Below, piece after piece: positions 2,991-39,164 of a stretch of 39,164 nucleotides of DNA. The DNA comes from Hydrurus foetidus (Eukaryota): assembly GCA_900617105.1 (NCBI GenBank), contig UYFQ01000703.1:1-39164 (forward strand), given 5' to 3'. A program made the translations under genes and the position numbers. Each line of letters begins with the position of its first letter. The stretch's first letter is position 1. Under the pieces are notes generated by a model. The model worked only from the letters and a program-made list of their open reading frames with translations, was not told the DNA's origin and did not search any database.

Positions 2991-3329
2991 TGTTGGAGAT
3001 ATCGAAGTTTATGACACGGACACAATCTGTGTACTTATTACTTATGCATTCGTACGGACGTACGGATTAATGTGTGTGTGTGTGTGTGCGTACATGCGTG
3101 TCGACGATGAATGGACCCGTGCATCGTCTCTGTACTTCAAGCGTAGAGTAGGAATGACTTTTGTTGTTGCGTTGAAAGGGACTCAGGGACTTCAGCAGGG
3201 ATGAAGCACAGTCAATTAACAAGTGTTTACTGCTTATACACAGCTTATTCCACGAGTCTTGACCGAGCGATCTTCAACCACTGTACAACGAGAGACATAC
3301 ATGTGACCCAAACCAAAGATCCGTCAACA
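2991..3329 (+). repeat. 3' LTR of family D element
   Basis: Begins TGTTGG directly after the PPT-position sequence and ends TCAACA (inverted termini). There is no partner LTR in the window, so the right end is inferred. Confidence 0.65.
3071..3088. repeat. (TG)9 microsatellite inside the LTR
   Basis: Direct reading. Confidence 0.9.
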
Positions 3330-3387: not shown

Positions 3388-3705
3388 TGTTGGAGTATCC
3401 GGAGAAAAGACACTGCTGTAGTTGTATAGTATATGTGTGGATCCTGACGGTCAGCGGTGTGCATCCTGGGGATGTGGACTCTGGACCGTTGGTTGTATGG
3501 GCTCATGGAGCCATCCATTCATCTATCTTCAACATGGATAGAACATGTGCAATTGCCTTGATATGTAAAGCTTCGTTGCCGTCTTGATTGATGCCGGTGC
3601 ACAAGTTTAATTATCAAGTAATTACACAGTACAAGTCTATTTTACGAGCCTTGGGTCACCGGCAGCAAGTTTCACTAAGCATCCGGACTTTGAGAAAGCC
3701 CAACA
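3388..3705 (+). repeat. 5' LTR of A1 (318 bp)
   Basis: TGTTGGAG...CCCAACA; near-identical to 8661-8936/16799-16840 and to the A2 LTRs in reverse orientation. Confidence 0.95.
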
Positions 3706-3715
3706 TAATTAAACT
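3706..3715 (+). promoter_or_regulatory. PBS-position sequence TAATTAAACT, complementary to the element's own LTR (3604-3613)
   Basis: Abuts the LTR-terminal CA, lacks TGG, and is the reverse complement of AGTTTAATTA in the LTR. Confidence 0.75.
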
Positions 3716-8936: not shown

Positions 8937-9227
8937 TGTCATTGCATTGTCATTTCAAACACAAACACACAACACAATGCTCACCGAACGACCGAGCGGT
9001 CCCAACGGCACGATGACGATCCGATCTTTCCACGTTGAAGCAGTTCAGAAGAGAACTGGTCGCGACCAGTTCTCCAACAGCTACACATTGTCCATTTCAA
9101 TTGCATTCATTCCACTCAATTCACCTCATCGTTTCCATTCCACAATCACAATCTTTCACTCGGTAAACTTAAAAACCAATTCTGTTTCTACCGTTTTCCG
9201 TTTCTGGATTACCGCCGAATCCCGACA
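8937..9227 (+). repeat. 5' LTR of B (291 bp)
   Basis: Direct repeat of the split 3' LTR; about 2 substitutions seen. Confidence 0.95.
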
Positions 9228-9240
9228 ATTGGTTTTTAAG
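9228..9240 (+). promoter_or_regulatory. PBS-position sequence ATTGGTTTTTAAG, complementary to the element's own LTR (9168-9180)
   Basis: Abuts the LTR end and is the exact reverse complement of CTTAAAAACCAAT. Confidence 0.75.
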
Positions 9241-9242
9241 CA

Positions 9243-12200: not shown

Positions 12201-13741
12201 TGACACCTACCAGTCCCTCCAACTCATCCCTCGTTCCAGTGTCGAATCCAAAGCCATCTTCCTACGTAGTCAAATGCTGATCAAGAAGAAATCCAACGGC
12301 ATTGTCACTGCCCGCCTCGCCATCGACGGTAGCCGCCAACCACGTGAATCCTACAACGATACATACGCAGGAACCTCCGACACAACCAATCGTGCCTTCA
12401 TCCTCAGCTCCTACCTCGCCGATGCTGCACACCGTAACTGCCTCGACCAGCTCCTCCTTGGAGACTTCGATTTTCCAGGCGCCTTCCTCCACAACAAGCT
12501 CACACGCGAGATGACCAACGGCCACCAGCTAATCGCGATCCTCCCGGCCGACCTCCCTAGTCCCCTCGCCAACAAGCTCGCAGAAATCACTGGCTGTTGC
12601 TATGGTATAAAGCAAGCCAACCACGAATACGACAAAGACCTCATCAACCTCCTAACATCTGCTGGCTTTCACCCAACACTCTCTGACCACCACAGCTTTT
12701 ATAAGCAATGTCCCGACAACCCCGCCGACTCACTGACCCTCAACATGCATGTCGACGATGGATGGTACGTCACTTGCTCCCGTACACTACGCGATGAACT
12801 CAAAACCATCCTTACAGGACGCTACGGACCCATAGCCTTCAATGATGCCTCGACAGGTGTCTGCGGAGTCCGTCTAACACGTAACGCTGACCACTCATGT
12901 ACTCTCGACCAAGGCGCCCACATCTGAAGTTCTTACATCAATCTGGCATGGACCTCGTCCCCCCCGCACTTACACCATCCACCGCAAACTTCTTCGACCC
13001 CCCATCCGACCTTACCCCAGTAGACCGCACCCGCTTCTTACGCATCAACGGCACTCTCATATTCCTACTTTCAATTCGACACGATATCAGGAAAGAAGTT
13101 GTCCACCTATGCACTCGAAACATTTCCCCAACCCAATCCGACCTCTCAAAACAAATCCACCTCCTCCGATATCTCAAAGGCTGCCCCCACATCGGCCCTA
13201 CTTTCTCCGCCAACCCATCCTCATTTCCATCCGGAGTCACTATCCTCGCTGCCGCTGACTCATCCCACGCATGCCATCCGGATGGACACTCTCACTCTGC
13301 GTACACTATCCAGATCGGCACGACCAACGCTTCATTCGCCGTCCACTCTTCCGCTGAAATTTCCGGCGTCGCCCTCAGCCCCTGCGAAGCTGAGTATCTC
13401 GCCCTCGGAAGATGCGCGAAAGATGTCAAACTCTTCCGACAGTTTGCAGCAGATCTAGGCTTCCCCCAAACATCTCCAACAGTTATCCTCGAAGATAACC
13501 AACCAGCTATCAATCTGACCACCGCACACCAGATCACCCGCAAGTCCCGCCACATCGCCCTCAAATCACACTACATACGCTGGCTTTACAAAACCAAAGA
13601 GATTGTCCCCAACACATAGGTACTCATGACATGATTGCCGATGGTCTCATCAAAAGCCTCACCCCCTCCAAATTCTTATGGTTCCGCAGCAAACTACTCA
13701 ACACTCCAACTACTTCACACAACCCTCACTCATCATTGTAA
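9243..13741 (+). pseudogene. copia gag-pol of B (heavily deleted and frameshifted)
   Basis: Gag-like N-terminus (NWSQW); IN zinc finger LHIELCH...CPHC (about 10790-10925) with a truncated core; RT TARLAIDG, DFPGAFLH, CYGIKQA, MHVDD (12121-12927); RNase H ADSSH, SPCEAEY, EDNQPA, MIADGLIK. Confidence 0.88.
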
Positions 13742-13829
13742 TTTCTCACCCCCCCTACATATAGTACTCCACATTTCTCAATATAACATAAGCCACATAT
13801 CGATTCATCATATATCACTTACCGGCGCA

Positions 13830-14004
13830 TGTCATTGCATTGTCATTTCAAACACAAACACACAACACAATGCTCACCGAACGACCGAGCGGTCCCAACG
13901 GCACGATGACGATCCGATCTTTCCACGTTGAAGCAGTTCAGAAGAGAACTGGTCGCGACCAGTTCTCCAACAGCTACACATTGTCCATTTCAATTGCATT
14001 CATT
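13830..14004 (+). repeat. 3' LTR of B, left part
   Basis: Matches 8937-9111. Confidence 0.95.
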
Positions 14005-14437
14005 AGAGTGTTCCTGATTCGTCCAAAAACGGGTAAAAGACAAATAAAAAAGACAAATCTGTCTCGAAACCATCGAAACCTCGTGCCCCTCGGACGAATT
14101 TTCGCAGAATCTGTCCTGCCTCGAGACAACATATCATCATTCAGAAACCCACTGTAAGAAAACTTCACTGGCAGCCGATCATGAGATTCTATCGCAGACC
14201 AGCGATTAAAAAGTTGTCACTTCGTCGGAGATGGTTAGGACTGACATCCTTGATGCGAATCTCGTGCAGAAAACTTGAGAAGGTGGACTTTGAGACTTTA
14301 TCTTTCGAACGTCAACGTCTCTAACAGCGTCGCAATCCATTACCTAGATTATCATCAAGCTCGTCAGAATCTTCCGCCGGATCAGATATGTTGAAAGTAG
14401 GAGGAAAGTAACGAGACTGAAGAGAGCAATTCTGAGA

Positions 14438-15559
14438 TTGTTGATTCGACGTCACAAGATAGTCAGTGTTCCCAAGGAATTAGAGGAGAAGCTGCCGAGA
14501 ATACGGAATCTTCGCAGAACAATTGATTCATTCTCCGACGAGGAAATTCCCGTCTACTTTCGATTCCGGAGTAAAGAGCAGCTTCATCGTCTGATGCGGG
14601 GTTTTCAAATTCCGATGCAAGTCAAATTACCTAAGACGGGCAATGTATTCGAAGGGGAAGAACTGCTTCTTATCGGACTGTATAGACTCCACCGACCAAC
14701 GACACTATCTGAAGGCGGTTTCAAGCTCATCTTTGGAATGGGACATACAGCAGTGTCAATGGCCTTCAATGCTTTCCTTGATTTCATAGTGGATAAATGG
14801 AGTTACATCATCACGGATAACATGGATTTTTGGCTACTGTATTTACCAGACTGTGCACAGGCCATCCGAGATAAATGTGTCGAAAAGGGTTGCTACTTTC
14901 CAGATGCGCGATCACCCGGAGGACTTAGAGTAGCAGCGTTTATAGACAACACTATGAACGCTACCTGCCGCCCTGGTGGAGGTCCTGCGCGAGATGGCCG
15001 AGATGCGCCGAGGAACGACCCTCTCATTCAGCGCGCCTGGTACAGCGGCTGGAAAAAGCTCCACGGAATGAAATATCAGACTATAGATATGCCGAATGGG
15101 ATGAACTTACATGTCTGGGGTCCCATCAGCGTGAGACACAACGATCTGACATCATTAAGAGATTCTGATGTCAATCAGAAAATAGTCGATATGCAAATCA
15201 ATGAACCGCTTCAGTGGGTATTCTACGGGGACTCTGCCTATGTTCATGTGCCAGATTCGCATATTCTAGCGAGGCACCATAACGAAGTCAACACTGAGCG
15301 TCAGAACCAAGAGAAAAGATGTCTCTCAGCTTGTCGTGAGTGCATCGAATGGGACTACGGCGACGTCGGAAAGATGTGGTCGATGGTGGATTACAAAAAG
15401 GTTTTAAAAATGCAATTAATGCCTGTTAAGGATATCTATTTGACTGCTCTAATACTAAGGAATGCTTACGTCACAATGAATGGTGGTACCGCTCCAGAAT
15501 ATTTTAATTTGACTCCACCAACTTTTGAAGTGTGGGTACAACAGGGTCCACGCTGTTAA
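14438..15559 (+). CDS. Harbinger/HARBI1-type DDE transposase (true start probably upstream and disrupted)
   Basis: FRFR..L HTH-like region, FIDNT, YSGWKKLHGMKYQ..PNG..GP..RHND, YGDSAY, RECIEW. The ORF track start is a TTG; the upstream ATG at 14231 is followed by stops. Confidence 0.88.
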   Translation: MLIRRHKIVSVPKELEEKLPRIRNLRRTIDSFSDEEIPVYFRFRSKEQLHRLMRGFQIPMQVKLPKTGNVFEGEELLLIGLYRLHRPTTLSEGGFKLIFGMGHTAVSMAFNAFLDFIVDKWSYIITDNMDFWLLYLPDCAQAIRDKCVEKGCYFPDARSPGGLRVAAFIDNTMNATCRPGGGPARDGRDAPRNDPLIQRAWYSGWKKLHGMKYQTIDMPNGMNLHVWGPISVRHNDLTSLRDSDVNQKIVDMQINEPLQWVFYGDSAYVHVPDSHILARHHNEVNTERQNQEKRCLSACRECIEWDYGDVGKMWSMVDYKKVLKMQLMPVKDIYLTALILRNAYVTMNGGTAPEYFNLTPPTFEVWVQQGPRC

Positions 15560-15610
15560 ACCTTATTGTTTAATAATATATTTCATTTTCGTTTTCATAA
15601 ACACTTCACT

Positions 15611-16474
15611 TTAAAACGTATCTTTCATGTTTCTCGCGAAGAACTCCATCATTTTCATTTGTAAGTTGGACGCGGCGAGGTCCGCTTTGGATCGTTCCAT
15701 TTCGGCTTTTGAACGCTCAAACGACATCTTCTCCTCTGAATCCATTCTTCTTTTCTCAATGTCTCGCGCGTGTGCTCTGTCGGCAATTGAGTCTTCCAGC
15801 CTTTGCTTTCTCTCAGCAATCTCCAATTCTAGGAGTCGTGGATCGTCTTTCATTGCCTTTAGAACCTCGACTTCAAAGTCTTCCCCTGCCTTGTCCTGCT
15901 GTTGAAATGATGGAGACCGTCTTCTTTTAATTGTTTTCGGGACGATGGTGCTTCCATCAGAGCAATCAGAAACAACATCCTCAGGAGAAGCTGCAGAGAA
16001 CTCCTCTTCCTCATGTCTGTCATGTCGCGCCAGCATTTTCTTCTCGTGCGTAATCATCTTATCGTTTCGCTCTTTGTCTTTCACTTTCTGATCCTCTTTT
16101 GCTTTTGCTGTTTCAAACCTCTCTTTCAGCATCGTCAGGACCAGCTTATCCAGCTCCGAGGGCTCCTCGTCTAGGCCAGACAGATTTGCCCCCTCGACAC
16201 TGATTGCGTACTTGGTGTCGACGTTAAAGGCGATACGGTCCCACTTCTTTTTTAAGGCAGCACCATCCAACATGGCTCCCGAAAATGCTTGATCAGAGCT
16301 GATTTTAATGCTCACTGCAGTAAACTTGTCAGTCAAATTGGTATCTCTCCGCATGTAACCTTTTTCCTTAAAGACATAGTTTGCTAGAGTGAGCTCCTTT
16401 TGCTCAGTCCAAGCAAAATTACGCTTCACAGGCTTCGCTGCCTTTTGAGTTGGGGGGTTTTCAATCTCTTGCAT
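15611..16474 (-). CDS. Harbinger accessory protein (Myb/SANT-like N-terminus, coiled-coil C-terminus)
   Basis: FAWTEQKELTL...LKKKW pattern and an E/K/R-rich tail; lies within the TIRs, convergent with the transposase; ATG at 16474. Confidence 0.75.
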   Translation of the reverse strand: MQEIENPPTQKAAKPVKRNFAWTEQKELTLANYVFKEKGYMRRDTNLTDKFTAVSIKISSDQAFSGAMLDGAALKKKWDRIAFNVDTKYAISVEGANLSGLDEEPSELDKLVLTMLKERFETAKAKEDQKVKDKERNDKMITHEKKMLARHDRHEEEEFSAASPEDVVSDCSDGSTIVPKTIKRRRSPSFQQQDKAGEDFEVEVLKAMKDDPRLLELEIAERKQRLEDSIADRAHARDIEKRRMDSEEKMSFERSKAEMERSKADLAASNLQMKMMEFFARNMKDTF

Positions 16475-16677
16475 TGTTAATTGATTGTGCCATTGTGCGC
16501 ATCGCAATGAAGCAAGTTTGTAAATCTTCAGAAAAAATTTCGAATTTATTTGAATCTTTTTGAAAATGTGTCCTATTTACTGACAGACAAATCAGAACCA
16601 CCTGCTTTTTGTCTTGCGTATGGGGACAGACTTGTCCACGGACAAATTTGTCCTGGACGGATCAGGAACACTCTATT

Positions 16678-16793
16678 CCACTCAATTCACCTCATCGTTT
16701 CCATTCCACAATCACAGTCTTTCACTCGGTAAACTTAAAAACCAATTCTGTTTCTACCGTTTTCCGTTTCTGGATTACCACCGAATCCCGACA
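16678..16793 (+). repeat. 3' LTR of B, right part
   Basis: Matches 9112-9227 and ends CCCGACA. Confidence 0.95.
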
Positions 16794-16798
16794 CCGGT

Positions 16799-16840
16799 AG
16801 CACGAGTCACTAAGCATCCGGACTTAGAGAAAGCCCAACA
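16799..16840 (+). repeat. 3' LTR of A1, right part
   Basis: Resembles 3664-3705 and ends GCCCAACA. Confidence 0.9.
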
Positions 16841-16849
16841 CATATAGTA

Positions 16850-17169
16850 TGTTGGGCTTTCTCTAAATCCGGATGCTTAGTGGCGCGTGCTTCCGGTGAC
16901 CCAAGGCTCGTAAAATAGACTTGTACTGTGTAATTACTTGATAATTAAACTTGTGCACCGGCATCAATCAAGACGGCAACGAAGCTTTACATATCAAGGC
17001 AATTGCACATGTTCTATCCATGTTGAAGATAGATGAATGGATGGCTCCATGAGCCCATACAACCAACGGTCCACAGTCCACATCCCCAGGATGCACACCG
17101 CTGACCGTCAGGATCCACACACATATACTATACAACTACAGCAGTGTCTTTTCTCCGGATACTCCAACA
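16850..17169 (-). repeat. 3' LTR of A2
   Basis: Reverse complement of the family A LTR. Confidence 0.95.
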
Positions 17170-20376: not shown

Positions 20377-20401
20377 CTCGATGCGCTGACTAGTTTAATT
20401 A

Positions 20402-21663: not shown

Positions 21664-22644
21664 TCAGTTGTTACTCTCCAATGGCGGAAATATGTAAGAT
21701 TTGAAGCGCTCCACTTCAGAAGCGGATCCATAGCAGACACCTACACGCCTATCGAGATCACCTACGATGACGTCCAGGAGTGATACTGGAGATACAGATT
21801 CAGCTGCCTCACTTGGGCAGACACACGTCGCGCCACCTGCAGCCTCGACAATAAGTGCTATAGGAGCAGCCTCAAAGAGTAGCCTGAGTTTGGCTTTCGC
21901 GGCAGGGGATGATGCATTTGCTAAGACTCCTTCTCCTTTGATCAGAATATGGTAAACATCTGGTACAAGGCCGCCACTGTAGCGCAAAGTATACTTGTTC
22001 TCAATCCAGTATGCAACCAGCCTCCTATAGCAATCATTGTCAACCGTCGCCCTCAGATTTCCTGGTGCGAAGGTTTTCCCCTTATGGGCGATGACAAGCT
22101 TATCTTTCGACACCATCCATCCTAAAGGAAGCATCGTCAGTTCCATGGCGATTGGTACGCCATCAACAGTGTTCATGCCATTTATAGCTATTGCTACAGT
22201 GACTTTCGGCCCATATTGCGCTATCATAGAGGCTGATTGTTCCCGACCACAACGATTTAGCAGCCCATTACCGGGCCATATTCCAACTATAGTGCCGACA
22301 GCAAAATTGCAGTCAACAATCGACGAGCCATCGAGGGGATCGAAGGCAACAGAAAATCCGACGCCGCCGCAGTCGATTTCAACTGGATTCTCCTCTGATG
22401 CGGCCACATGAACAAGAGAGCTCGATCGCAAACAGGCAAAAACCAGTTCATCAGTCTTCACATCGACGTCGAGCTGATGATCACCGAAAGCATTTTGAGT
22501 GCCAACCTCAGATGTTGAATAGCCGCAATCTCTAAGCGTGGTGCCAATCTCCCTTATACCTCCTAGTAATTTGGATATGAGATTGTGTAGGCCACTCTTC
22601 GTCGCTGTATTATTCAAAATTACGGTCAGTTCGGTGGGTAACAT
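21664..22644 (-). CDS. Sedoheptulose-1,7-bisphosphatase (FBPase class I family), 326 aa
   Basis: NAFGDHQLDVD, ASEE, FDPLDGSSIVDCNFAVGTI, FAPGNLRAT, YTLRYSGGLVPDV, KLRLLFEAAP; first ATG at 22644; intronless. Confidence 0.9.
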   Translation of the reverse strand: MLPTELTVILNNTATKSGLHNLISKLLGGIREIGTTLRDCGYSTSEVGTQNAFGDHQLDVDVKTDELVFACLRSSSLVHVAASEENPVEIDCGGVGFSVAFDPLDGSSIVDCNFAVGTIVGIWPGNGLLNRCGREQSASMIAQYGPKVTVAIAINGMNTVDGVPIAMELTMLPLGWMVSKDKLVIAHKGKTFAPGNLRATVDNDCYRRLVAYWIENKYTLRYSGGLVPDVYHILIKGEGVLANASSPAAKAKLRLLFEAAPIALIVEAAGGATCVCPSEAAESVSPVSLLDVIVGDLDRRVGVCYGSASEVERFKSYIFPPLESNN

Positions 22645-22799
22645 TATTCTCGACTTCCTCAAGTATGTCAGTTCTCGGAGCTGGTCCGCACGTTGAACTG
22701 CATGCAATTTATGCTGCCGTAGGGGTTGGAGACGCTCTCTACACCAGACGAGATGGATGGTAAAGATAGGCAAATGGGCAAAATACTGCACCGACTGGA

Positions 22800-22841
22800 T
22801 GTCGTAACTAAGGATCAGTTTCCACTGAATGGAAAACTATA
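22800..22841 (-). repeat. 3' LTR of C, distal fragment
   Basis: Identical to 33658-33699. Confidence 0.93.
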
Positions 22842-23083
22842 AGCCGCTCACACCGAAATTCTTTGTACTGGGTACCAGTTTTTCACCGCCGACAACAATC
22901 TGCACACTCGATCAGTCACATCACCTTCACTCCATAACCTCATAAATTTACAACTCGCAACCATCTGCTAAGTTACTGAGTGATTCTTGCAGAGTGGATC
23001 GCAGAGCTTCAGCCAAACGGCGAAAACGGGAAAGTTTTTTTTGCTCGGTAACTGCTTCCGCAAATATTTCGAATCGATTATTT
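22842..23083 (+). repeat. Left TIR (242 bp)
   Basis: Reverse complement of 27466-27711 apart from one ~4-nt indel. Confidence 0.95.
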
Positions 23084-23096
23084 TCTAGTCACGCTA

Positions 23097-25025
23097 ATGG
23101 GGATAAAAGACCTGATAAGCAAGATTTTTCCTGAGGAACTGAAGATAGAATCTAGCTCTGAGATCCTCAGAGACAAAACTATGGGCGTAGACGTATCAAA
23201 TTACATGTTTAAATTGATCACTACTCGTGATAATCTTGTCCGAGATTTTCACTGTGAACCGCGACTTGATACTTCTGCTCAAATTTTGAAATTCTGGGAC
23301 TCCTTCAAGAAACTTTGCGATAGATTTGATATCAAACTAGTGCTTGTATTAGATGGGAGAAGAAACACTGCAAAATTCGATACCAACCAGCTCCGAGATG
23401 CGAAGAGAGCAGCCATTATCGTAAAATTAAACGAACTTCTTCTAAATGCCAACAGTGACGATTCTGAAGAAATTTTGAAGCTACAGAAAAGTGCAATGTT
23501 CATATCAGAGGATATGCTATATGCTATTAAAACTTGGGCGGCTGAGAATGACGTTGTCTGTGTCCAATCACTCTATGAAGCGGATGCTGGTCTACAGCAC
23601 CTGGAAGATATGGGTATAACAGATGGAACTTTTTCTGAGGACGGAGATTTTTTTCCTCTCGACAGCAAATTGTGGGCTACAAAAGTGAGTCTTTCTAAAG
23701 GAATTTTAATCCTTTTCAACAGCGAGAATATCCGAACAGCCTTAACTGCACGGTTATCCCCCAGCAGTGAGGTTATCATGACAGCAGACCATGGACGGGT
23801 ACTGAGTGTGCTCCTGGGCAGCGATTTTTTGCCCCGACCAGCTGGTTTCGGACCAAAAACTGTTGAGAAGTTTATCGCAACTTGGATGATTTCATCTGAA
23901 GAGGAAAATAATAAAAGTTTAATGGAAATTGAAAAAGGTAAAAAAAAGAGGAAAAACGGTGATTCTGACGCACAAAATACCGATGCTTTTCCGAGTTACT
24001 CCTCCCGGTTTTGGCTCGCATTCAATATGTTAAAACATCCTCCTGTGTTCAAATTCACATCGTTGGAAGAAGGTGCATCTGTTAATATCGGGTTACTTGG
24101 TATTGACGACCTGAATCTAAGCAAGGAGCATGTCTTTCGCACACTAGGGTTCAATGCCTTACTAGACGTTGAGAATATAGGAGACTACAGAAAGCTTCTC
24201 TTCCTTGCGGATGACATATTCGTTAGGACTATGATGCCTCTACTACCAATTATTCAGCCAAAGAATTCTGAAGGATTGCTTCTTCCTTGGGGTTCTCAAC
24301 TAAACTTTGACAAGTGGCCTCCTAACATGTGCACATCTGACATGTTAAATAAGTGGTAACGAGCAAGAGGCGTACGTTATTCTCCAACTGTTGCTCACGA
24401 TGAATTAGTGAGATCGGTAATGACCCTTATGAATGAAGTGCCCCAGAGGGACATCATACCTGTCGACGATATACCTGAGGAGGCAGATTTTGGTGTGGGG
24501 CCTGGGGGTATACAGTGGAATTTGGACGGTGATTACAATTTTGCTCAGATAAGAGACAGCGAAGTTACTCCACCTATTAACGAAGAATTTATTGATGCAA
24601 TATTTGGTCATCGCGGTGGAGTGGAAAATCGGGCGATGCGACTCATACCTGGTGGCCACTTCAGTATGTCTACACTCAAGATATGTCGCATCATGTGCAA
24701 GCGTTCAGGCGTAAACGAAGAATGCGTTATGTATCAAATAAAGAGCACACCTTCAATGAAAGCCAACGAGTATGCAGTGAATTTAGTATTTAGAAAAGGT
24801 GTTTTAGATAATGATGAAGTTGGAGTCAGGTTTGTTAGAAGCCCTTACTCTCACTGTGATTGCCCAGCAGGCCAAATGTTCTGTTCTCACATGTTAGGTT
24901 TCTTAGGTATACTAAGAGTAATTCAAGAACATCTTCTGCTTCCATACAGCAAAATAAGTGCTTTACTTCCTCCGTCTGTTAAGGCTTTATCAAGTACAGG
25001 CATCTTACTTGAATATGTATTCTGA
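23097..25025 (+). pseudogene. XPG/FEN1/EXO1-family 5' nuclease + SAP + SWIM protein (~642 codons, one in-frame TAA at 24357-24359)
   Basis: MGIKDL, GVDVSNY, LVLDG, YEADA, SEDGDF, LLGSDF..GFGPKT (H3TH); SAP-like TSDMLNKW*RARG...DELVRSV; SWIM CDCPAGQMFCSH. The two ORFs are in the same frame. Confidence 0.88.
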
Positions 25026-25043
25026 ATTGTATTACTATTCAAT

Positions 25044-27459
25044 TTACACATACTCTCTATCTTTGTATTTCTTACAGAGATTAGCATTTGCATGACCCCA
25101 TGATATGCAATCTTTGATATAAGGTAAACAACTAGCAGGTATCACATCAGTCAGTAAATTTTCATCAGTAACTCTTGCAAAGTTAGTTTCTGAAATGTAT
25201 CTCAACTTGCATTTTACCATATCAGATGAAAGTTCAGATGTAGTAAACTGGTCTCTCCCTGATAGGAATGATGGAGTCATCTGGACATTCATGTTTGGAT
25301 ACCGTGTGGCATCATTAGCGAATCCACGATCTGCAAGTATAGCCCACCCCCGAGGGAATTTTCCTAACCGTAACGGTAACCTCAACTCTGCTAATCTCAG
25401 ATTGCGTACGACGGGGCTTAGATCGATGCCATTGACTTTCAAGGTTTGACCTTTCAGCACTCTTATCATATCGCTTCTTAACTTTGTAGTCACCTCTAAA
25501 TACTCGGATAGGAGACAGGATTCTAAATTACCACATGCGTACTGTGTGTGCAATCTCTTCAAACATTTCAATTGAATCAATTTAGACTCTGGCGATTTGT
25601 TTGGTCCTGATCTTAATACAGCTTGCTCTACTACATCGTGATCCTCTGTTGAATATATTCTTGCCTTCTTCCTACTATTTGCAGTGTTTTCTTTGTCAGC
25701 TGAGATCATACTCTGAAACCACTTATCTATTCGACTACAAAAATGTTCGCTGTCTGCTTCTCCTGGTGCTATATCTTCGTCCCCTTCCATGACTTCTCCC
25801 TGTACCTTAGTAACACCAGCAACCATTTTTCCTACATTTCTCGTACTAACACGCGATTGTATTGGACGTTTTATTTTCTTTAAATCCTTGTAGAGCTGTT
25901 TATCAATTAAACGCAAGGGTACTTCTCCAATATGAGACCCCAGTACCTGCACTATGTGAGTTTCAGACGCTCTTCCAAGATAAGGCTCAGATCTCTCACC
26001 GTTCAAGCCATTATTAAGCACCCAAGATAATACCCTCAGAGCTGAACAGTTAACTTTGTTGGAGTGTCCTGCTCTAGTAATTCCACTGTGAGTACGTATC
26101 GTTTCTGTTTTAAAATCCTCGCCATCAACTAGGCCACACACTTTGTCAGTAGAGCCGTTGACAAAATCTTCAGGAGTGAGAGATATAAGAATGGATTCGT
26201 TGATATCTAGTATAGACAGATTTGCACCCGCTTCTCCCCAAAGGGGGGCCCATATTTTGACATACCGGCCTATATTACTTCGCCCCCATATGTTACCAAT
26301 TAACTCAAACTCCAAACCTTTTCTGAAATACATTTTTGTTATCATACTTTTTTCAAAGTCACATATTTGCCCGTCTTTGATTTCTACCGTTGTATTCACA
26401 TAGGGCCAAAGACACTTGTGGTAAATGACGAACTCTGCAAAACTAATGAATCCGAGCCAGTAGTGACAGAACTTAGGGTGACTCTCGTGCCAGATAGGGC
26501 AAACGATGTTAGACCGAGTAATACCTTTAGATAAAGTCACTTTCATTTTCCCCAATTCGTCTGCAACTTCACGATTTTTTATCTTGCAACAACCGGTTAC
26601 TTTCAGCTGACACCTCGAGCTGCCTTTTCAATACCTTGACTTCACTTTCAATTTTTCTTAGCACTTTCTTCCCTTCATCGGTCATATTATTAATTATCGT
26701 TACTTTCTTTTCTTCGTCAGCAACTATTTTATTTTTACTCTTCTGCTCCAGCATTTTTCTCTCCTCAATCAGAATCTCAGCAGCCATAAATGCGGACTTC
26801 TGTCGGACCGTTGCTAGTCGGGCAAGATCTTCTCCAGGGAACTTATTTTCACTGCTGTTGGAAGACAATGCTTTTCTTATCGCTGCAGGTACAGAGTGGT
26901 CGCCAGAAGCCAGATTGTTAATCTGCTGATCCAAGAATACAGTATTTAGATAATTTCGGTAAAATCCAACAGTAGCCGAGGGAACATTAAAATAGTAGCA
27001 AGATGAGGACGAGATAGCTGCTGGTACTCGATCAGGGGTTGTCAATCCTATCTCTCTGCCTAGTTCGAGGCTCAGAATCTTTGGAAAGATCTTTTTCGAT
27101 GATCCTTCATTGGAATTACGGTGTTCCTCGAGAACCCTCGGATGCCAGTGACTGAAGGCCAAAAAATTTGGTGATTTGTCTTTCAAATCTGTCAAGCGAA
27201 GATGATTAATCACTAATGACCTATACTTGTCAGATATGATAGCTTTAGGAGTCGAACTCGTCTTCGATTTGGTCGGAATATAGCACAAGCCCACCCTGTG
27301 AAAATGAGACAGTAATTATACAGTAGAGGCGTCGCAGTTGAAAGCTCCTGAAATTCCTGAAAAGATAGGATCTTACATATCATGCTGTTCGAGAGCAATT
27401 AGACGCTCCTGCAGTTGACTGCACTCATCAGAATCAGTGCAACAGCACTTTCTACCCAT
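25044..27459 (-). pseudogene. ISL2EU-type DDE transposase; exon 1 27459-27377, intron 27376-27296, one frameshift at 26575-26580
   Basis: Cys-rich THAP-like start MGRKCCC..C, coiled coil, HTH (FEK..ITKMYFRKG..FELIG.IWG), LVDG, YLGRASE, ILADRGF, TPSFLSGRDQF, LRYISE. Confidence 0.85.
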
Positions 27460-27465
27460 ATCCTC

Positions 27466-27711
27466 AAATAATCGATTCGAAATATTTGCGGAAGCAGTTA
27501 CCGAGCAAAAAAAACTTTCCCGTTTTCGCCGTAACTGTGGCTGAAGCTCTGCGATCCACTCTGCAAGAATCACTCAGTAACTTAGCAGATGGTTGCGAGT
27601 TGTAAATTTATGAGGTTATGGAGTGAAGGTGATGTGACTGATCGAGTGTGCAGATTGTTGTCGGCGGTGAAAAACTGGTACCCAGTACAAAGAATTTCGG
27701 TGTGAGCGGCT
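27466..27711 (-). repeat. Right TIR (246 bp)
   Basis: Inverted copy of 22842-23083. Confidence 0.95.
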
Positions 27712-27714
27712 ATA

Positions 27715-28036
27715 TCCTTCCTGGGTACGCGCTCCTTCTGCAGGTTCAACACGTGCGCTAGCAACTTTCCCGGGCTCAAGGCGAAAGCTCTGCTGGTGTG
27801 AGTATTAAGGTAATTAACGATGCAACATCGCTTACATCGTTCATGGAGACAGGCGAAAAGATCGCGCTGTCCCGCACAGTCAAACATGGTGCACTTTCAT
27901 CTTTTGATGTTCCTGGGTTAAAGGAACCTGGACCGGTGGAGTAGCGACCACCACACGGCACACGACGTACGAAACGTCATCAAATGTACATACGTAATAA
28001 CTTATACGGTTACTTAGCTCATTAGTTATTCCGACA
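27715..28036 (-). repeat. 3' LTR of C, main part
   Basis: Matches 33700-34022 with about 3 differences; preceded on the minus strand by CATAGGGGTG (28046-28037). Confidence 0.95.
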
Positions 28037-28422
28037 CACCCCTATGGCGTGAGTCGTCGGGTTGGTGTACGCGAATGAAAACGCAATAGAATTCAAAAAT
28101 GCTCCGTTTACTTGAAGCTTCACAAATGGTGTATCATAACATGATTTTATATTGTAGGGAAGTAGGGTAATGGTGGGGTTGACCTTAATTGTGACGTTAG
28201 ATAATTTATTGCATGCAGGGTAATATTAGTATCATAAGGTCTGACTGATCCGAATGAGCATAGAGTTAAACAATTCTAAAAAGACTTTATGTAACACGCA
28301 AAAGATTACACTTAAAATAATTTTCTGACTTGTTATACTATCTGATTCCGGAATCGGGTCTTGGGTCTGGGTCCACGGTCCTCGCTCTTTATGTCTCTGT
28401 CGGGGTTTTCTTGAGTCGCACT

Positions 28423-28663: not shown

Positions 28664-31600
28664 TTAGTTCTTCTTGGATGTAGGGTATGGAAATCGTGGG
28701 TTGAATTTGGTGCGTACGGGTGTCGGCGCGGAGTCCGTACGGTCCTCAGTCTTGCATCCATCTGCGTACGTGAGGGTAGGTGGTGAAGTGTTGAGCAGCT
28801 CCTTCCTGAGCTTCTTGAACAATTCACCCTGCAGTGGCTTGGTTAGAATGTCTGCAATCATGTCAGTAGTAGGTAGGTACACAATGTCTACATCGCCTGT
28901 ACTGATTCTGTCGTGCAGGAAAAATACCGTATATCAACGTGCCGCGTACGTTCGCTGTTCGAGCGACCGTTACGTATGAGCTGTATCGTAGACTGATTGT
29001 CTTGATACACTAAGGCGGGAGGTTGAGGGTGTCCCTGGCACTCCAGGAAGTTCCTGGTCCACAGAACTTGGTTGGCGGAGTCGCTGAGTGCGACTAGCTC
29101 GGCCTCCGTGCTGGACTTTGTCATGAGGCGCTGAGTACCGCTCTTGGCGTAGATCGCTCCCTTCCCAAGGGTGATTACGCTGCCTGTGTGACTTTTCATA
29201 TCGGGATGTATGGCAAAGGATGCATCGATATATGCAATAACATGAATAGGTTCATATACTTCAAATGTTATACCCGTATGCTGACTACCCCGTATGTACT
29301 GTATCGTACGGGTCAGCTTGTCGTAGTCGTCCCTTTGGGGCCTCAGCACTCTCTTTGTCAGGAACGCTACGGCAGTCAGAATGTCTGGCCTCGTCCTCTT
29401 ACTCAGGTAGAGTAGCTTCGCTGTAATAGAGTGAAAACGCTCACGCAGATTATCAGGTAAGGGTGAGTCAGATTCATCAGGTATAGTGAATAGATTGGCT
29501 CGTGCGGGTGTGTTTGCCGTGCCCGGCATATCCTTACACCCCTCAATGAGGTCTTGTACGAAGCCTTCCATAGTCATTTTAACGCAGCCTTCCTTGCTGA
29601 AGTCGAAAGTCATGCCTATGTAATTTAAAACTTTTCCTCTGTGTTTGGTTAGACCGGGATATATAGTTTCAATTTGTTTTATAACATCATCAACGCGAGA
29701 TTCACTTGAAGCAGTAATTATCATATCATCAACATGAATTACGAGTGATGTTTGTGTGTTATCCGATTCAGTTCGGTTGAATACGCATATGTCATATTCA
29801 TTAGCAGTATAATTGAATTTAATCAAATCACTGGATAGCTTATCATACCATAGTTTAGCAGATTCAACGCATCCATATAAAGCTTTCTTAAGTTTAACAA
29901 TACATGTTCCATTGTTATTCATGTATTTGTTATATGTTGCATCAATCTTAATTAGTGCAGCAGTCAGTTGTTTATTCAGACGCATGTATACAACATGGTC
30001 GCCGGTCAGCGGCATATCACTATTCAGGAATGCACCGGGAAAGTCAACAGTGGCGACAGCACGCTTCTGTCTAGCAGCAATTGCAGTCAGTATGAATACA
30101 CTAGATGTGCTAGCAGTAGGCGAGGCGCCATTGTTATAAACATCTCTATCTTGTAAGTGCCCACCGGCTACTAGTCTAGATTTCAGTTTTTCAAACATAC
30201 CATCAGCAGTGTACTTTTCTTTTAGAAACATGCTACTAGATATGATGGTGCGTTTTTGTTGTGGGGTGAGGGATTCATAAGTTACACCTTCCCAAACATT
30301 CTTTTCACACATTTGTTTAAGTTCAGATGTGATGGAGTCAACAGCTATCACCCCTAACTTATTAATACCTTCATTAACAGTCATTTTATACAGGTGAGTG
30401 TGATTATAAAACAGGTTACCAACATATTTCTTATCCCATTTTCCAAGTTGGTGATTTCTACCACTTCTACGCAGTATGGGTGAGTTAATAACAGGTGGGT
30501 CATATGCAGTGTCTATTATGGTGTCAGGTGGAGTGAATACTTCAGGGTGTACAGTTACATCAGCGAAGTCATCTTCATCATCACTTATGCCAAATATGTC
30601 ATCTATCAGTGCTTGATCATATTTAGGTTGGGGTACATGTGTATCATCATGTGTGTCATCATAATATAGTTCGTCATTGTCGTATGTAGTGTCACTCACA
30701 TATAGTGTGTCATCTACATACTCATCTAATGTGGGTGGGTGATTTTCATCAGACATATCGAGTTGTGATTCAAGATGTGTTTCGTTATCATTGTGATCGT
30801 TATCTTCAATAATCTCATCGGTGTAATCTGCGTTAGCATTTTCATCGACAGTTTCATATTCAACATCACCAATGTAAGCACTATCATCTTCAACATCGTC
30901 ATCATCATCGAATACAATGTGACTACTATTCTCAAATACAGGCTGTTTAACATTGGCAGTTTTTCTCTTTGAAGCTAGTACATTCAAGTGTAATATAACT
31001 TCATCAGGCATAGGTAGTACAGTTGCTTTAGTACGTTTAACAATGCGTTCGTTAGCTAACAGCATGTAGTACCATGAACCTTCTAGATTACCGGAGCTCA
31101 TAAGTGCTATGGCCCCGGCTGTTCTTGGTTTGGTAGAGTTATCAATGACATCATTATGCACTTGGACATAATCACCAAAACCATGTTTAATCTCCTTATC
31201 TACGTCTAACTTTCTTCCAGTTAATTTCTCTCGTGGACTGATGTGATTAAGTGAGTTACGTGTGGGTGCTAATACAATTCTACTGACTGCATACTTAACT
31301 AACCACACTTCTAATTTCTCATTCAATGAGAACGGTAGAGAATTGACTACTGATCTTACTCTCTCCTTTATGTGTCGTATCTTACGCTCGACTACGGCTA
31401 CGGCTTCTCCGGCTCCGGTAACGTCTAGTACTATACCTCTTAAGCCGACTTTGTTGTGAAACCATTCTGTATTGATTGCACCCTCGCCGTCTACTCGGAT
31501 CATCTTAACTCTGAATCTGTACTTTACCATGCTTGCTAATGAAGTCTTTAGGCTGTTCCATATGCTCTTGTGCTCTCGGTTAGCTAACTTGCTAACGTAT

Positions 31601-32550
31601 AGGAACTCGATGGGCTGCACTACTGATACTAGATATGGTACTTGGTTGACAAACATTATATCTACATACATAATCTGTTCTGTCTTGTACTCAATACCTA
31701 TCAGTGGTAGCTTCTCTTCTAACTTGGCCTGGTGACTGGTGGTCTTCCCCTTAAGGGATCCCACGTCCGGTCCCCATATATCAATGGCTCTATGTACGTC
31801 TCGCGCAGTCACTTTGCTATTAGTCAAATTCCCTTGGGATATCAACTTAATAGTCTGTGCTGCGCTAGCGTATCCTAATCTACGCTGATAGTCTCTAGCT
31901 AACGACGCGTCTCTGACTTCTCTTACTGTATACTTCTTCTTATTCTGCTCTACTGTCGTAACTAACATTGGCATGCATTCTGTTACCATAGTGTCAAGAT
32001 TACATTGGTATATATTCATAGCCTCATCTCGTGAGAATCTATAAAAATATTTTCCGCTGACGTCTTGCACTATGTAACAATCATAGTCATGTAAGTACTT
32101 AACATCAGTACAGTCACGTACAGCATTACCAAAAGACAATATGTTACCAGCACAGTCAGGGCTATAGTACACGTTGCCGAACGCCGACACCCCACGTTTC
32201 TTGATTATTAGCGGTTTTCCTTTCGGATTCACCCCGCTAACAATCATAGGTGTGGGTGCGTGTTCGACATTATACAGCAGGGATGAGTCGTTGAAAACCG
32301 ACTCACCAGCACATGTGTCAAGCAGAATGTGTCTACTTCTAATCATGTTATATATATTGCATGTATTGGCACTAAAAACAATATGATCACATGTTTCAAT
32401 TCCGCTAGTGGAATCAGCCAAACATGGAGGATCGGTGAGTGTATGTATAGGTGTGTGTGTGGATGTAAGTGTGGGTGAATGTACAGGTGAGGAATAATGT
32501 ATCTTACTTAGTTTACCGACTTTCCACTGGGTGCTGATGCACCCGCTTGG
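28664..32550 (-). CDS. copia pol of C (PR-IN-RT-RNase H); one frameshift near 28920
   Basis: LLDTCAG; YVDIMF/RVDGEG/VERKIR; KSRLVAGG, VDFPGAFL, KKALYG, IHVDD; IDASF, SSTEAE; tail ADILTKP in another frame after an A-run. The frame is open upstream to 32550. Confidence 0.9.
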
Positions 32551-33620
32551 CTATCCTTGGCCGTACACTCATAGGAGTAGTGTCCGGCTTCACCGCACTT
32601 ATTGCAATTTCCGGGACGGGTGCCGTACGACGTACGCCCACCCCTCCCTCTGTCCCCGTTCCCACTAGCCTTCCCTTTACCAGCATCAGTAGGTTTCTCA
32701 CCGCCAGCCGTTTTCGTGGCGAAAACGTTGGTCTGGTTGGGTGGTGTTGCTGCTGCTGATTTCCTCGGCGTGACCTTAGCCATCTCGATGTATGCATCCT
32801 CGAGTGTGTCTGGCCACTCCTTCAGTCCGTGCTCGTAGTATTCTACGTAGTGACGGTAACCGGAGTTCAGGCCGTTCATGAACTTCATCCCTGTTAGAAG
32901 TTCATTATGTGCGGTCATGGCCTCGTTGAACTCGGGCATGACCCCTAGTGCCCGCATCGTGTCCTTGTATCCGGATTTCAACGCTTTAAAGCGTTGATAG
33001 TAATACTTCAGCACGTCATTCTGCTCCATCTTGACTGTCTCGTAAGCCATTCGGACTCTCAACAGATTTTGATCGGCGCCCAACCTCGGATCAGAGAGGT
33101 GGGTCAGAATGATGGCTCTCAACAATAGCAATGGGTCCTCCGCAGTCATAGCTGCTGGCCCTGTTTCTGCCTCTCGAATTGTCGCTTTCGACCCTTCGCT
33201 AATCTGACCGAGCATTAGTCCGAAGACTTGCTTGCGGTCCTTTCTCAGAGTAAGTATATTTCTATCATATAGCTCCAATGCTCGCTTCCATTTTGTTGAT
33301 ACCATGAAATTTGCATCGGCAGCTATGTCCGCTGGAGCGACATATTGCGGGTAATCACCCGGTATGCCCTCGTTGCCGAATATCTCAGAGATATCGGACT
33401 TATAGTTCGCGCGAGTATACTCGCGGAACTTCCTCATCCATGCGCTTACGCTGCCATGGTTCATCTCTCTTCCAAGATCCAGGAATGCGCCAATCGCGGC
33501 TACCGTTCCTGTTCTTGGTGGAGGCTTCGCACCGCGGCCAGCATTCCCTCTGCCACCGTTGGCAGGGTTTGCTCGACCGCCTGCGGTATTGTGTTCTCGG
33601 CCTCGGCCTCTGCCTTTCAT
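32508..33620 (-). CDS. copia gag of C
   Basis: 370 aa starting 37 nt after the 5' LTR; RG-rich N-terminus; CNKCGEAGHYSYEC zinc knuckle. Confidence 0.9.
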   Translation of the reverse strand: MKGRGRGREHNTAGGRANPANGGRGNAGRGAKPPPRTGTVAAIGAFLDLGREMNHGSVSAWMRKFREYTRANYKSDISEIFGNEGIPGDYPQYVAPADIAADANFMVSTKWKRALELYDRNILTLRKDRKQVFGLMLGQISEGSKATIREAETGPAAMTAEDPLLLLRAIILTHLSDPRLGADQNLLRVRMAYETVKMEQNDVLKYYYQRFKALKSGYKDTMRALGVMPEFNEAMTAHNELLTGMKFMNGLNSGYRHYVEYYEHGLKEWPDTLEDAYIEMAKVTPRKSAAATPPNQTNVFATKTAGGEKPTDAGKGKASGNGDRGRGGRTSYGTRPGNCNKCGEAGHYSYECTAKDSQAGASAPSGKSVN

Positions 33621-33647
33621 GTTGCAACTGGTTGCAACGAAAGCAAC

Positions 33648-33657
33648 TCGTTAATTA
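33648..33657 (-). promoter_or_regulatory. PBS-position sequence TAATTAACGA, complementary to the element's own LTR (33796-33805)
   Basis: Abuts the LTR end; forms a perfect 10-nt inverted repeat with the LTR-internal site. Confidence 0.75.
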
Positions 33658-34022
33658 TGTCGTAACTAAGGATCAGTTTCCACTGAATGGAAAACTATAT
33701 CCTTCCTGGGTACGCGCTCCTTCTGCAGGTTCAACACGTGCGCTAGCAACTTTCCCGGGCTCAAGGCGAAAGCTCTGCTGGTGTGAGTATTAAGGTAATT
33801 AACGATGCAACATCGCTTACATCGTTCATGGAGACAGGCGAAAAGATCGCGCTGTCCCGCACAGTCAAACATGGTGCACTTTCATCTTTTTGATGTTCCT
33901 GGGTTAAAGGAACCTGGACCGGTGGAGTAGTGACCACCACACGGCACACGACGTACGGAACGTCATCAAATGTACATACGTAATAACTTATACGGTTACT
34001 TAGCTCATTAGTTATTCCGACA
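33658..34022 (-). repeat. 5' LTR of C (365 bp)
   Basis: Uninterrupted copy of the split 3' LTR. Confidence 0.95.
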
Positions 34023-34993
34023 CTGGGTGTAACCTAAGACCGTTCCGTTTCTTACGGTTTGAGATCTGGGAATTGACTTTACGTTTTTTTCCCAGATCCC
34101 ATTTCGATTTCTCAGAACCCAATCCACGGTCAAGTGTTCTAACTTCTGGATGTCACATTACCGTGTAGGTTGGCTACTCATCTGTTATGAATGCAGCAGG
34201 CAGTTTCTCGATTACGCTAGCCGAGATGGATGTGTATTCCTGAACGTCATGAATTTTGTCTCCTCATTGATGTTTGGATTAGTTTTGATTGAATTATTCC
34301 TTTCAGAGCTGACTCGGGTGTTGAGGAAACAGACTCCAGATAGTAATTTGGATGATGTGTTGATAATAACTTACACAACTTTGTACAGCAGGCGATCAGG
34401 GTTACTGAAAGAGGCACATCGTTCGAAACTAGAAATTCTTAAATTATCCGCTGACACGAATGAAAATTTCTGGTTGTCCGCTGGCAGGGATTCGACACGG
34501 AGATTAGAAGCAATTAGCATCAAGCATCACACAAAAGTGGCAGCGTTTACCCCGTAAAATTAGATTGTCATCGTTATCATGGAGAGTATGAAACAAGCGC
34601 ATCGAAAAGTCGCGGCGATAAAATACACGACGCAAGGTGCAGAAGATCAAAATACACGACAGCGGAAAAAATGTGCGATGAATCACGCAGCCATAAATCC
34701 GCGCTCTTTCTTTGTTCAGCGCTCATCATGTGTCACTACCCGGCCTGCTGAATGCCGTCTTACTTCGTTGACGCCGCCAACCACGTCATTGATTCCGCCG
34801 CCAACTACGTCATGAAAGTCTTCAAATCAACGACGCCTATCAGTTTAGCAAATTTCTAATGAGGTTTAACAGAGTCAAAACGTTAGGAAACTTGCCGAGC
34901 TGTTCGTCGTCAGAGACTTTGAAGTTGTTTTGAATCGATGCATCTTCATATGCCTTCTAGTCCGGATAGGAAAGTAGGTCGATAGAGTGGAGG

Positions 34994-35506: not shown

Positions 35507-38500
35507 TTAGGCTGATGTCTCAATGTTTTTGGGAATGAAATGTTTCATTTTATTATCCCGTAAATAATCATGGAGTGCTTCACAGAGCCGTAGTGATTTC
35601 CACGGCTCCCATGTATTATGAGAATCATCGTAGTTGAGCCATTTAACATGGAACGACATTGTAGTCGGTTTCTTGGTGTCACCAGCGTGACCCAGAACTT
35701 TCTCAACCACGAACTCCATGTAATCGCGACGAGCAGTGTCAGCAGGTATATCTACCTCTGGGTCATAATTGAATATTTTCAAATTTTTGACATGAACACT
35801 TCGTTTCTTGTGATTTACAAGATTTGCGAGAACGTACTCGGACCCCTTAAAGGAGACAATACAGTAAGGGCCATGCCACTTAGTATGTAATCGAGTTGGA
35901 GGTCGATCAGTGTATCGGCATAAGACATATGACCCCACGGGGAACACAGTCGCTGATTCAGCTGACGCGGCGTTTTTAGCATCCGCTTTTAACAAAGTTT
36001 GAACCGCAGTTTCAAGTACTTTGTCTTGTACACTTATCAAATCTGATATGTACGTTGATCTTGAATGTGTTCCGACACTTAAGTGTGGAGTGAGAATACC
36101 ACGATTCAAATCAAGTTTGTTCCCAAACAATAAATGAGCGGGGCAAACACCTGTGCGTCTATTAACTGAACTGTTAATGATACGTTGCACGAATGGGATT
36201 GACTTAGCATATCCCTCAAGGGTTTGTTTATCAAAAACTAAACCTCTTAGGTGTCTATTCACCTCTTTGTTGACTCTTTTAACAATTGCATTCTCTTGTT
36301 TCGAGTAAGCAAGGGTGAGATTATGTGGTGTCCCACAAAGATCTAAGAATTCTTTGATCAATTCATTTGCGAAATGTGATCCTCGATCAGATCTAATCAT
36401 ATTTGGTGATCCAAATCGACCAAAATGCGCAAGCAAACAGTCAGCTGCTGATTTAGCATCTGCGTCTGCACACCAGAACAATTCTGTCCATCGTGTGAAT
36501 GTATCGATGATGACAAGGATATAACCTTTGTCAGGAAATGGACCAATATAGTCAACATTTAGCGTATCGAAGATAGCATAATTTGAAGTTGCAAAATGAG
36601 ACGCATTGATCTTAGGATCTTTTGCACTCAATTTTGACAACACGGACAGTTCTGTATGAACGTACGTACATGTTGTTTCATGTGTTTCCAAACTTGTTGT
36701 AAACTAAACAACCGAGTAAGGGTACGGTCTACGCCGTTGTGACCGACAATTGCATTGTGGCACATTTGAATGTATTCTAACTGATCGTCTGAAGCCGGTT
36801 CTATGACCGTCAGAGCTGATACAGTGAAAGAAGATGATGAAGTTGGAAGTAATTCCAATTCTTCTGTTCGTAATGGCAGAGCAATTTCTGTCAGATTAGG
36901 ACAAAGCCTTGACAGTGCGTCTGCCAAAACATTTGAAGTACCGGGTACGAATACCACGGTAAAATCTAGTTCTTGCATAGCAATGAACCATCTCGCCACC
37001 ATTGAGGTAGGATTTTGTTTCATATATGTTATGTTCAAATGATCCGTATGGATAGTGAACGTACGATCTCTAATTAGATAATCGAGTTGTGTACAACAAA
37101 AGAAGATGGCATAAGCCTCTTTTTGTATCGTAGACCACCTTATTTGTGTGGGTGTCAACGATTTGCTAATGAAAGCAATTGGTTGCCAAATGGCACCAAC
37201 AACTTGGAATAAGACACCACCGATACCAAAGTCGGACGCGTCTGTATACAAGCGGATGTCTAACTTATTGTCATCAATGAAGTACATTAATGGACAACGA
37301 GATATAGCAATCTTTGTGTCAACAAATGAGTTGGTGCTCTTTTGAGTCCAAACTACAGCAGAACGTCTCGGAGCAGAGTGATCAATCATATCCTGCATTG
37401 GCTTAACCAAAGTGGAATGCATTGGTACAAACTGTCGAAAATAGTTTGCTAAACCTAAAAATGACCTGAGTAAGGTTAAATTTTTAGGTATAGAAAAGTT
37501 TAAAACTGTTTCTATTTTTTCTTTTGACATGGATAAACCATCTTTGTCAACGACTCTGCCAACGTATTCAATACGTGGAAGGCCGAAACGGCACTTTTAG
37601 CTTTGAGTCTTAGACCCTTAAGTCTAAATCTTTCAAAACTTTTTCAAGTTAGTTAGAAACTCTGCTTCACCCTTGCCATATACTATACAATCGTCGAGAT
37701 ACATCTCAACAATGATAGATAAGGCCATAGAGGACCGCCGTTACCATCTGCTCTTGAAAGTAAGAGGGGGCTCGACACGGACCAAAGGGCAGTCTCGTAA
37801 ACTGAAATACCCCGCAAAGCATATGAATGCCGTAAAATGCGGTGTGCGGTGTAACGGTGCTTGATGGTAACCTGCGGTTAAATCCATCACACCAAAATAT
37901 CCGGTTTTTTATTACCGATCCTCTCAAAGAGGTGTTTGATATTTGGTAACGGGAATGAGGCCGGCTTAAGACACCTATTAAGTGGCCGGTAATCGATGCA
38001 GGTTCGAAATTTACCGGGTGACTTAGTTACTATTACAGGATGACTGTAATAAGCGGCATCTGATCGCTCTATAACCCCTGATGCAAGCATCTCGTCAAGG
38101 TTTTCTTTGAGAGCAACCTCTTTTGTTGATGACTGGGGACGTACCGGCGTACGGTTTTCGTCTTTTTCCCACAACTCAAGTGGGATGTTAATCTCAAAGG
38201 GTTTAAGTGACGCTGGTTTCTCAGCTAATTGATCACTGAAGATGTCTGAATATTCAGAACAGAGCTCTCGGAGCTTCCTTTGAAAGCTTTCATCTCCTTC
38301 AAAGGTAATCTCGTTGAGGAAATCCTCTGGCCCTTTGGGCAAGTCATCTTGACTAGGTTTCTCCGCCAAGAAGGGGGCAAACGTATCTATCTTGCCATCG
38401 TCAATCTCGTCAACTGAGAGTGCGACACCACTGGGCCATAAAGGCTCAGTGACATAGTCTAAGGTATCAGAGTCCTCAGAAGTGTTTGTAGGGGTGGGAA

Positions 38501-38573
38501 TCTGGTCGCCACCTAGGTGCGGTGTATCACCCGTACGTTTTGCGAGAATAGTAGTGACACTATTGGCAGACAC
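35507..38573 (-). pseudogene. gypsy pol (RT, RNase H, integrase, chromodomain), several frameshifts
   Basis: RTCIDYRPLN, TRLPFG, YLDD (near 37700), LRSFLGLANYFR, TDASDFGIG, EKEAYA-like QKEAYA, TDHLN, ADALSR, H..GH..CPCC, VDYIGP, SDRGSHF, WHGPY, chromodomain VEKVL..VKWLNY...TWEP. Confidence 0.92.
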
Positions 38574-39164
38574 ATACTGCAGAATAATGATTTTTACTCC
38601 GACTGATCATATCTTCATTGTGATGAATCAGTCGACGATGATCGATGCGTCTCTACCTCGAATTTGCCTGAGGCCTGGAAGCATTTTTTTCCACACGCTT
38701 TCTGGCCTGTGCAACTTAGGGATACAAATTTCGGTATAACCACGTCTAGTACTCTATAAGCACACTGTCAAACTTTGCCTCCCTAAGTTTAAAAATTGAT
38801 TTTTTTGTGGCTGTGTTTCCACTCTGCGACATGCTGACCTATCTCTACTACGAGCTTGAACACCGATTCAACATCTTTCATGTGCCATTGTGATGGTACA
38901 GGATTTAGTACCACATTCCTACCCTCCATAGTACCGTATAGCCGTCCGTACATGTGGCTGAGAGTCCTTCTGACCTCTCGCAGCTTGTAGTTACCTTGCA
39001 ACGCTTTGCATGCAGAGTTTTACACCTCTGCAAGCTCACCCACCACTCTTTCCGTTGTAAGCCTAACTACCTTTCTGCCTCTCCTAGCTTCATTTGGACT
39101 ACAGTGGATCTACTCGTTCCGCTTTCCTTCTAAATTCTACTACTTTGCCCCCTACTACCCATCC

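Follow-up and report, generated by a model that had tools for sequence, protein, structure and literature searches.

To our knowledge, Ty3/gypsy retrotransposons are the only elements in which self-priming of reverse transcription has been demonstrated. Lin and Levin reportedly found in 1998 that one of these elements, Tf1, needs a U5-IR-like structure, and Atwood-Moore is said to have found in 2006 that the Tf1 primer is kept. Passages of PMC7175516 describe how the first 11 nucleotides of the Tf1 RNA pair with the primer-binding site (PBS) and how RNase H cuts between nucleotides 11 and 12. For Ty1/copia elements, self-priming has previously rested on sequence prediction in one plant lineage, the TAR copia elements (Houba, Osr-1), which have a 5-bp target-site duplication (TSD); self-priming was predicted for 89% of 203 elements, the call being an LTR match of at least 10 bp that starts 0–5 bp after the LTR (passages of PMC6317226), and these passages contain no covariation or initiator analysis for TAR. 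Fungal GalEa elements are copia elements without a tRNA PBS in which a palindromic motif, CTAATTAGT or CTGATCAGT, immediately follows the LTR; its partner lies 12–41 bp downstream, and the authors who described it found no LTR complement (passages of PMC5445492). The diatom lineages CoDiI and CoDiII are copia lineages of heterokonts that lie far from the main Copia lineage, and the terms 'primer binding' and 'tRNA' never occur in the main text of the paper that describes them (PMC2806351). We found no report of self-priming in algal copia elements in the open-access literature.

The 39,164-nt stretch of Hydrurus foetidus DNA analysed here (the window) carries on its minus strand a young Ty1/copia LTR retrotransposon, family C, recognizable by an RVT_2-type RT, an integrase before the RT, TG...CA LTRs, and a 5-bp TSD. 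Its 5' LTR (33658–34022, 365 bp) has TG...CA ends, and the flanks of the element, CCCAG and TCCAG, form the target duplication with one mismatch. The 3' LTR lies in two parts, 27710–28036 and 22800–22841, the last part having been displaced by an inserted TIR element, and across its first part, 327 nt, the 3' LTR departs from the 5' LTR by 2 substitutions and 1 indel. The insertion is a DNA transposon of ~4.9 kb (22842–27709), possibly Academ-like; it splits the LTR at a TA-rich site, has perfect terminal inverted repeats of 174 nt and codes for an XPG-type nuclease. A short polypurine-tract-like AGGGGTG (28037–28043, minus strand) abuts the 3' LTR, and relatives have similar motifs. The gag ORF (32508–33620, minus strand) encodes a CCHC zinc knuckle, and pol (28888–32550, minus strand) follows in a separate frame with the order PR-IN-RT-RH. 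The Pfam RVT_2 match of pol is weak (E 2e-21) and there is no Pfam rve match; the integrase, before the RT, was recognised by inspection of its HHCC-like and DDE-like motifs, and the RNase H shows its acidic motifs in translation, although in this copy its C-terminus has shifted out of frame. In their motifs the RT and RNase H look CoDi-like. Where pol overlaps gag in another frame (32550–32502, minus strand), the gag stop TAA is directly followed by a splice-donor-like GTAAG, which is absent from the same place in 14 relatives. Elsewhere in the window are a Ty3/gypsy chromovirus fragment with RT, RNase H, integrase, and chromodomain (35507–38606, minus strand) and a host gene of the FBPase/SBPase family (21664–22836, minus strand), whose best named matches are from ochrophytes, namely Ochromonadaceae (62%) and Ectocarpus (61%), so that an ochrophyte host is likely.

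Read along the minus strand, the 5' LTR of family C ends in ...GTTACGACA at 33658, with TAATTAACGA (33657–33648) directly abutting it, 27 nt before the ATG of gag. These ten bases are the perfect complement of TCGTTAATTA (33805–33796, minus strand) within the LTR, across a 138-nt loop, and TCGTTAATTA recurs in the 3' LTR at 27820–27811. Sequence features of Tf1-type priming are present, with a PBS that complements a site in the element's own LTR, lies flush with the LTR end and has no TGG start; the LTR arm would be the first 10 nt of the RNA as well as the primer. An initiator-like CA (33806–33807, minus strand) directly precedes this arm. In 200 dinucleotide shuffles of the leader the best CA-anchored pairing averaged 6.6 bases, compared with 10 in the real sequence (p=0.015). 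The duplex is weak (−8.3 kcal/mol), and the helix is present in both the MFE and the centroid fold of a leader with an overall z of −2.07. The fold of family C also contains a predicted U5 hairpin (33668–33704, minus strand) within the 138-nt loop. A search of 33500–34100 against Rfam gave 0 matches at E<=1, and neither arm was hit by contig variants among the 40 of 98 rows listed.

Pairing of this kind occurs with different letters in the other copia families of the window. In family A, the LTR arm AGTTTAATTA (3604–3613, plus strand) is preceded by CA and complements the PBS arm TAATTAAACT (3706–3715, plus strand) across a 92-nt loop; a second copy on the minus strand, with its PBS arm at 20392–20401 and its LTR arm at 20503–20494, has the same pairing and loop. 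CA-anchored pairing in family A exceeded that in shuffles at p=0.005 and 0.01 and reaches 11 bases if the last A of the LTR is counted, the duplex being worth −6.5 kcal/mol and the leader overall having a z of only −0.47. At 16840–16850 two family A elements meet in tail-to-tail orientation, separated by 9 bp. A preliminary description of this DNA had reported the family C pairing and its repetition in the 3' LTR, loops of 138 and 92 nt, and PBS arms that differ between A and C in their last three bases, each matched by its LTR partner although the LTRs are otherwise dissimilar. All of this is borne out by the sequence: the arms differ at positions 8–10, and blastn found nothing better between the two LTRs than an 8-mer at E 5.6. 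The same description ranked this pair of families as the strongest evidence in the window, which proved too generous, because 7 of the 10 letters are common, the TAATTA core is palindromic and the difference could be a single indel; the A/C comparison alone is modest evidence, and the strength lies in the wider comparisons.

Family B offered a prediction. Only its 3' LTR (2991–3329) falls within the window, with the PBS outside, and it contains the arm CAGTCAATTA (3209–3218, plus strand) after a CA; the expected PBS was written down from CA|CAGTCAATTA before public contigs were checked. One contig from run X3 continues past the LTR end with TAATTGACTGC, 10 of 10 bases as predicted, and two contigs from run X12 continue with TAATTGACT, of which 9 letters are shown. 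A mixed consensus of three in run X1 starts CAATTGACTG, with a different first letter and an agreement of 0.62, and no such continuation is listed for run X9; the predicted PBS was seen cleanly in two of the four runs. In all four runs the segment 3186–3232, made up of the predicted primer and its immediate upstream neighbours, is covered by many more contigs than other parts of the family B LTR; although contig depth measures this poorly, the segment may be the one that subfamilies conserve best. Family D, whose RT/RNase H is only 27–30% identical to that of family C, pairs over 13 bases with its own LTR, between the PBS arm ATTGGTTTTTAAG (9228–9240, plus strand) and a 13-nt LTR arm (9168–9180, plus strand) across a 47-nt loop; here the CA motif before the arm is missing and TGG occurs at +3. 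This family D element (8937–16793) is strongly C-skewed and frameshifted and is nested in the 3' LTR of family A, where CCGGT forms the target duplication; inside its own 3' LTR sits a Harbinger-like element (DDE_Tnp_4; 14005–16674) whose terminal inverted repeats are short.

We extended the comparison to relatives by aligning the pol of the window with 78 of the 120 homologues listed; used as a query, this alignment recovered 74 loci from metagenomes and 19 from genome bins and no relatives from viral contigs. The last 19 (L075–L093) are copia elements of the same eukaryotic clade whose contigs had been assigned to bacterial genome bins, probably through contamination during binning. A rule that placed LTR ends by a PPT pattern plus the best terminal repeat was abandoned, as it recognised no PPT in most regions and gave most others wrong ends. 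Leaders were instead chosen blind to pairing, by a 5' gag match with at least 250 nt upstream, which left out 57 loci and retained 36 of the 93, making 39 leaders with the three window copies. The preliminary description had named the absence of pairing from related families as a finding that would count against it; what we found is that 31 of the 39 leaders pair over 9–19 bases right after CA, and 24 of them over at least 11. Any other dinucleotide used as the anchor gave at most 4 leaders with at least 9 bases and 1 with at least 11, sub-stretches of the CA helix being excluded. The eight misses were read by eye: L010 is a stretch without an LTR, the contigs of L046 and L065 begin past the partner site, L034 has a variant LTR end and pairs 9 bases, L027 has 15 of 16 bases paired and L059 pairs 14 with two G-U. 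In L053 the PBS, which pairs 14 bases, fell beyond the stretch that was searched, leaving L081 as the one miss that reading by eye did not explain. L053 also carries, shortly before its LTR ends, a second, 11-nt copy of its LTR arm, which might pair locally with the PBS as a hairpin.

The pairing is specific to each element. When the 24 distinct arms were combined across elements, 0 of 552 combinations reached 9 bases, and TGG was found at offsets 0–3 of the PBS in none of the 24. In a quick tree of 42 rows, family C falls in a 99% clade with L001–L004, its four nearest neighbours, all of which pair, each with its own sequence. The check for covariation over many families that the preliminary description had proposed came out in its favour: in 12 chosen pairs of sister elements, 2–12 arm positions differ and Watson-Crick pairing is kept throughout in both members. 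From PBS+1 to the CA motif, 34 distinct elements have 434 Watson-Crick pairs, 5 G-U pairs, and 10 mismatches, as counted in a search that favoured perfect pairs, and with 12 hand-picked loci added the number of distinct arms rises to 36. The pairing is real, non-random, and lineage-wide, occurring with different letters in four families of the window and in dozens of relatives.

At its outer end the LTR arm hints at a transcription start. CA is found there in 20 of the 24 distinct arms, directly before the arm in 14 and with its A as the first base in 6, whereas the background is 0.06 per position; a binomial calculation gives 3e-15, which is overstated because relatives were treated as independent. 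A T precedes this CA in 24 of 34 elements. In diatoms a putative initiator, TCAH+1W, has its +1 at the base after CA (passages of PMC4686930), and it supports a start site here only indirectly, because it was found by eye and is present in 68% of 5' flanks according to the same passages. The paired length up to the CA motif is mostly 10 in the group of families C, A, and B and 14 in the other group. When leaders were folded from the start of the arm, the helix had a probability of at least 0.87 in 21 of 24 and of 0.38, 0.00, and 0.00 in the other three. For family C it was 0.97 with an RNA start at 33805 and 0.01 when 100 nt upstream were added, because a local hairpin there captures the arm. 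A predicted start near 33805 would thus fit both the initiator-like CA and the modelled folding. Against such a start, contigs from RNA runs span 33805 (record 33693–33841, X18), though these could come from 3' LTR read-through or from DNA. A crude test for a second helix, between U5 and the leader, gave no excess (−11.18 kcal/mol for own and −11.13 for cross combinations).

From these comparisons, we propose that family C probably primes reverse transcription with a 10-nt piece of its own RNA, in the manner of Tf1, and not with a tRNA. Transcription would start at 33805 or one base earlier, and nucleotides 1–10 of the RNA would fold back on the PBS across the 138-nt loop. The element's own RNase H would cut after nucleotide 10, and from the 3' end so created RT would synthesise DNA across U5 and R. 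Points that weigh against this reading are the weak duplex, the three leaders that fold poorly into the helix, the case of L081, the lack of excess U5-to-leader pairing, the missing CA and the TGG at +3 in family D, and a crude anticodon-arm pattern that fits 5 of 24 arms. If the primer were then retained and copied into plus-strand DNA, the PBS would be rewritten from the LTR arm in each cycle and the match would stay perfect. Such templating is suggested by pairs that are almost all Watson-Crick, and if it occurs the covariation is partly mechanical and not only the result of compensatory selection. The earlier claim that selection acts on pairing is thus upheld in part: pairing is kept while the letters change, but copying of the PBS from the primer is an alternative cause. 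We infer that either cause, templating or selection, would imply priming.

The helix might instead be a selected RNA structure that acts in packaging, dimerisation, or translation control, or as an auxiliary fold comparable to the 5' pseudoknot of Ty1, with something else as the primer. We consider this unlikely. It can draw on tRNA-primed Ty1, whose nucleotides 1–7 pair over a long range and matter for reverse transcription (passages of PMC3592414), and on the palindromic TAATTA core, which recalls the CHSeq1 motifs of fungal GalEa (passages of PMC5445492). However, the 3' arm begins at the very first post-LTR base, where the 3' end of a primer is required to lie, no other primer site is evident, and wobbles are few (5 G-U), though in a search biased towards perfect pairs.

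The diversity of the arms bears on another possibility, that the primer is a tRNA fragment (half-tRNA) or other host RNA and that the match to the LTR arises only incidentally. With 36 distinct arms, dozens of primers would be needed; an anticodon-arm pattern, a crude one run without a null, fits 5 of 24 arms and neither A nor C; and the specificity of each PBS for its own LTR would be left unexplained. Even though half-tRNA priming is established in Ty1/copia (copia, Osser, and Bianca; passages of PMC6317226) and a TAAT start is common within the C/A/B group, we regard this reading as very unlikely. That the inverted repeat is functionless, left by a DNA-level event such as template switching or LTR-end hairpin repair or arisen by chance in AT-rich sequence, seems to us slightly less likely still. 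The arms are indeed AT-rich, and family C taken alone gives p=0.015, but this explanation is already largely refuted by the controls, since pairing is anchored after CA only, its outer end is sharp and lies at the initiator-like motif, and the family B prediction was confirmed.

Self-priming in Ty1/copia, as put forward in the preliminary description, gains comparative support here, but the proposal is not new, having been predicted for plant TAR elements (passages of PMC6317226). What is added here, in algae, is covariation across many families, an initiator-like motif at the start of the predicted primer, and a confirmed prediction. Self-priming by family C would imply a copia RNase H able to cut an RNA-RNA substrate and, likely, that self-priming arose more than once; control by tRNA fragments would not reach such elements, and annotation tools that look for a tRNA PBS as a requirement would overlook them. 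The proposal also yields a single-base prediction of the RNA start of family C. For the clade as a whole, we lean slightly towards a view in which a large clade of ochrophyte copia elements lost tRNA priming independently of Tf1/sushi and TAR, the primer being the 5' end of the RNA, with a length set by the distance to CA (~10 in the C group, ~14 in the other), a free sequence and a PBS rewritten each cycle.

Membership of family C in the Tf1/sushi clade was considered and is ruled out by the copia domain order (PR-IN-RT-RH) and RVT_2. Family C nevertheless shares the geometry of Tf1/Tf2 of Schizosaccharomyces pombe and of Tf1/sushi, with an arm of 10 nt in place of the 11 of Tf1. Tf1 is a Ty3/gypsy element whose start and cleavage have been demonstrated, whereas family C is a Ty1/copia element known from its sequence; where Tf1 reportedly needs a U5-IR-like structure, family C has a predicted U5-internal hairpin, and the crude test gave no U5-to-leader excess. 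TAR elements, compared here by description, are from plants and mostly have one ORF, whereas family C is algal and has separate gag and pol frames. In GalEa the partner lies downstream of the post-LTR motif, whereas in family C it lies inside the LTR.
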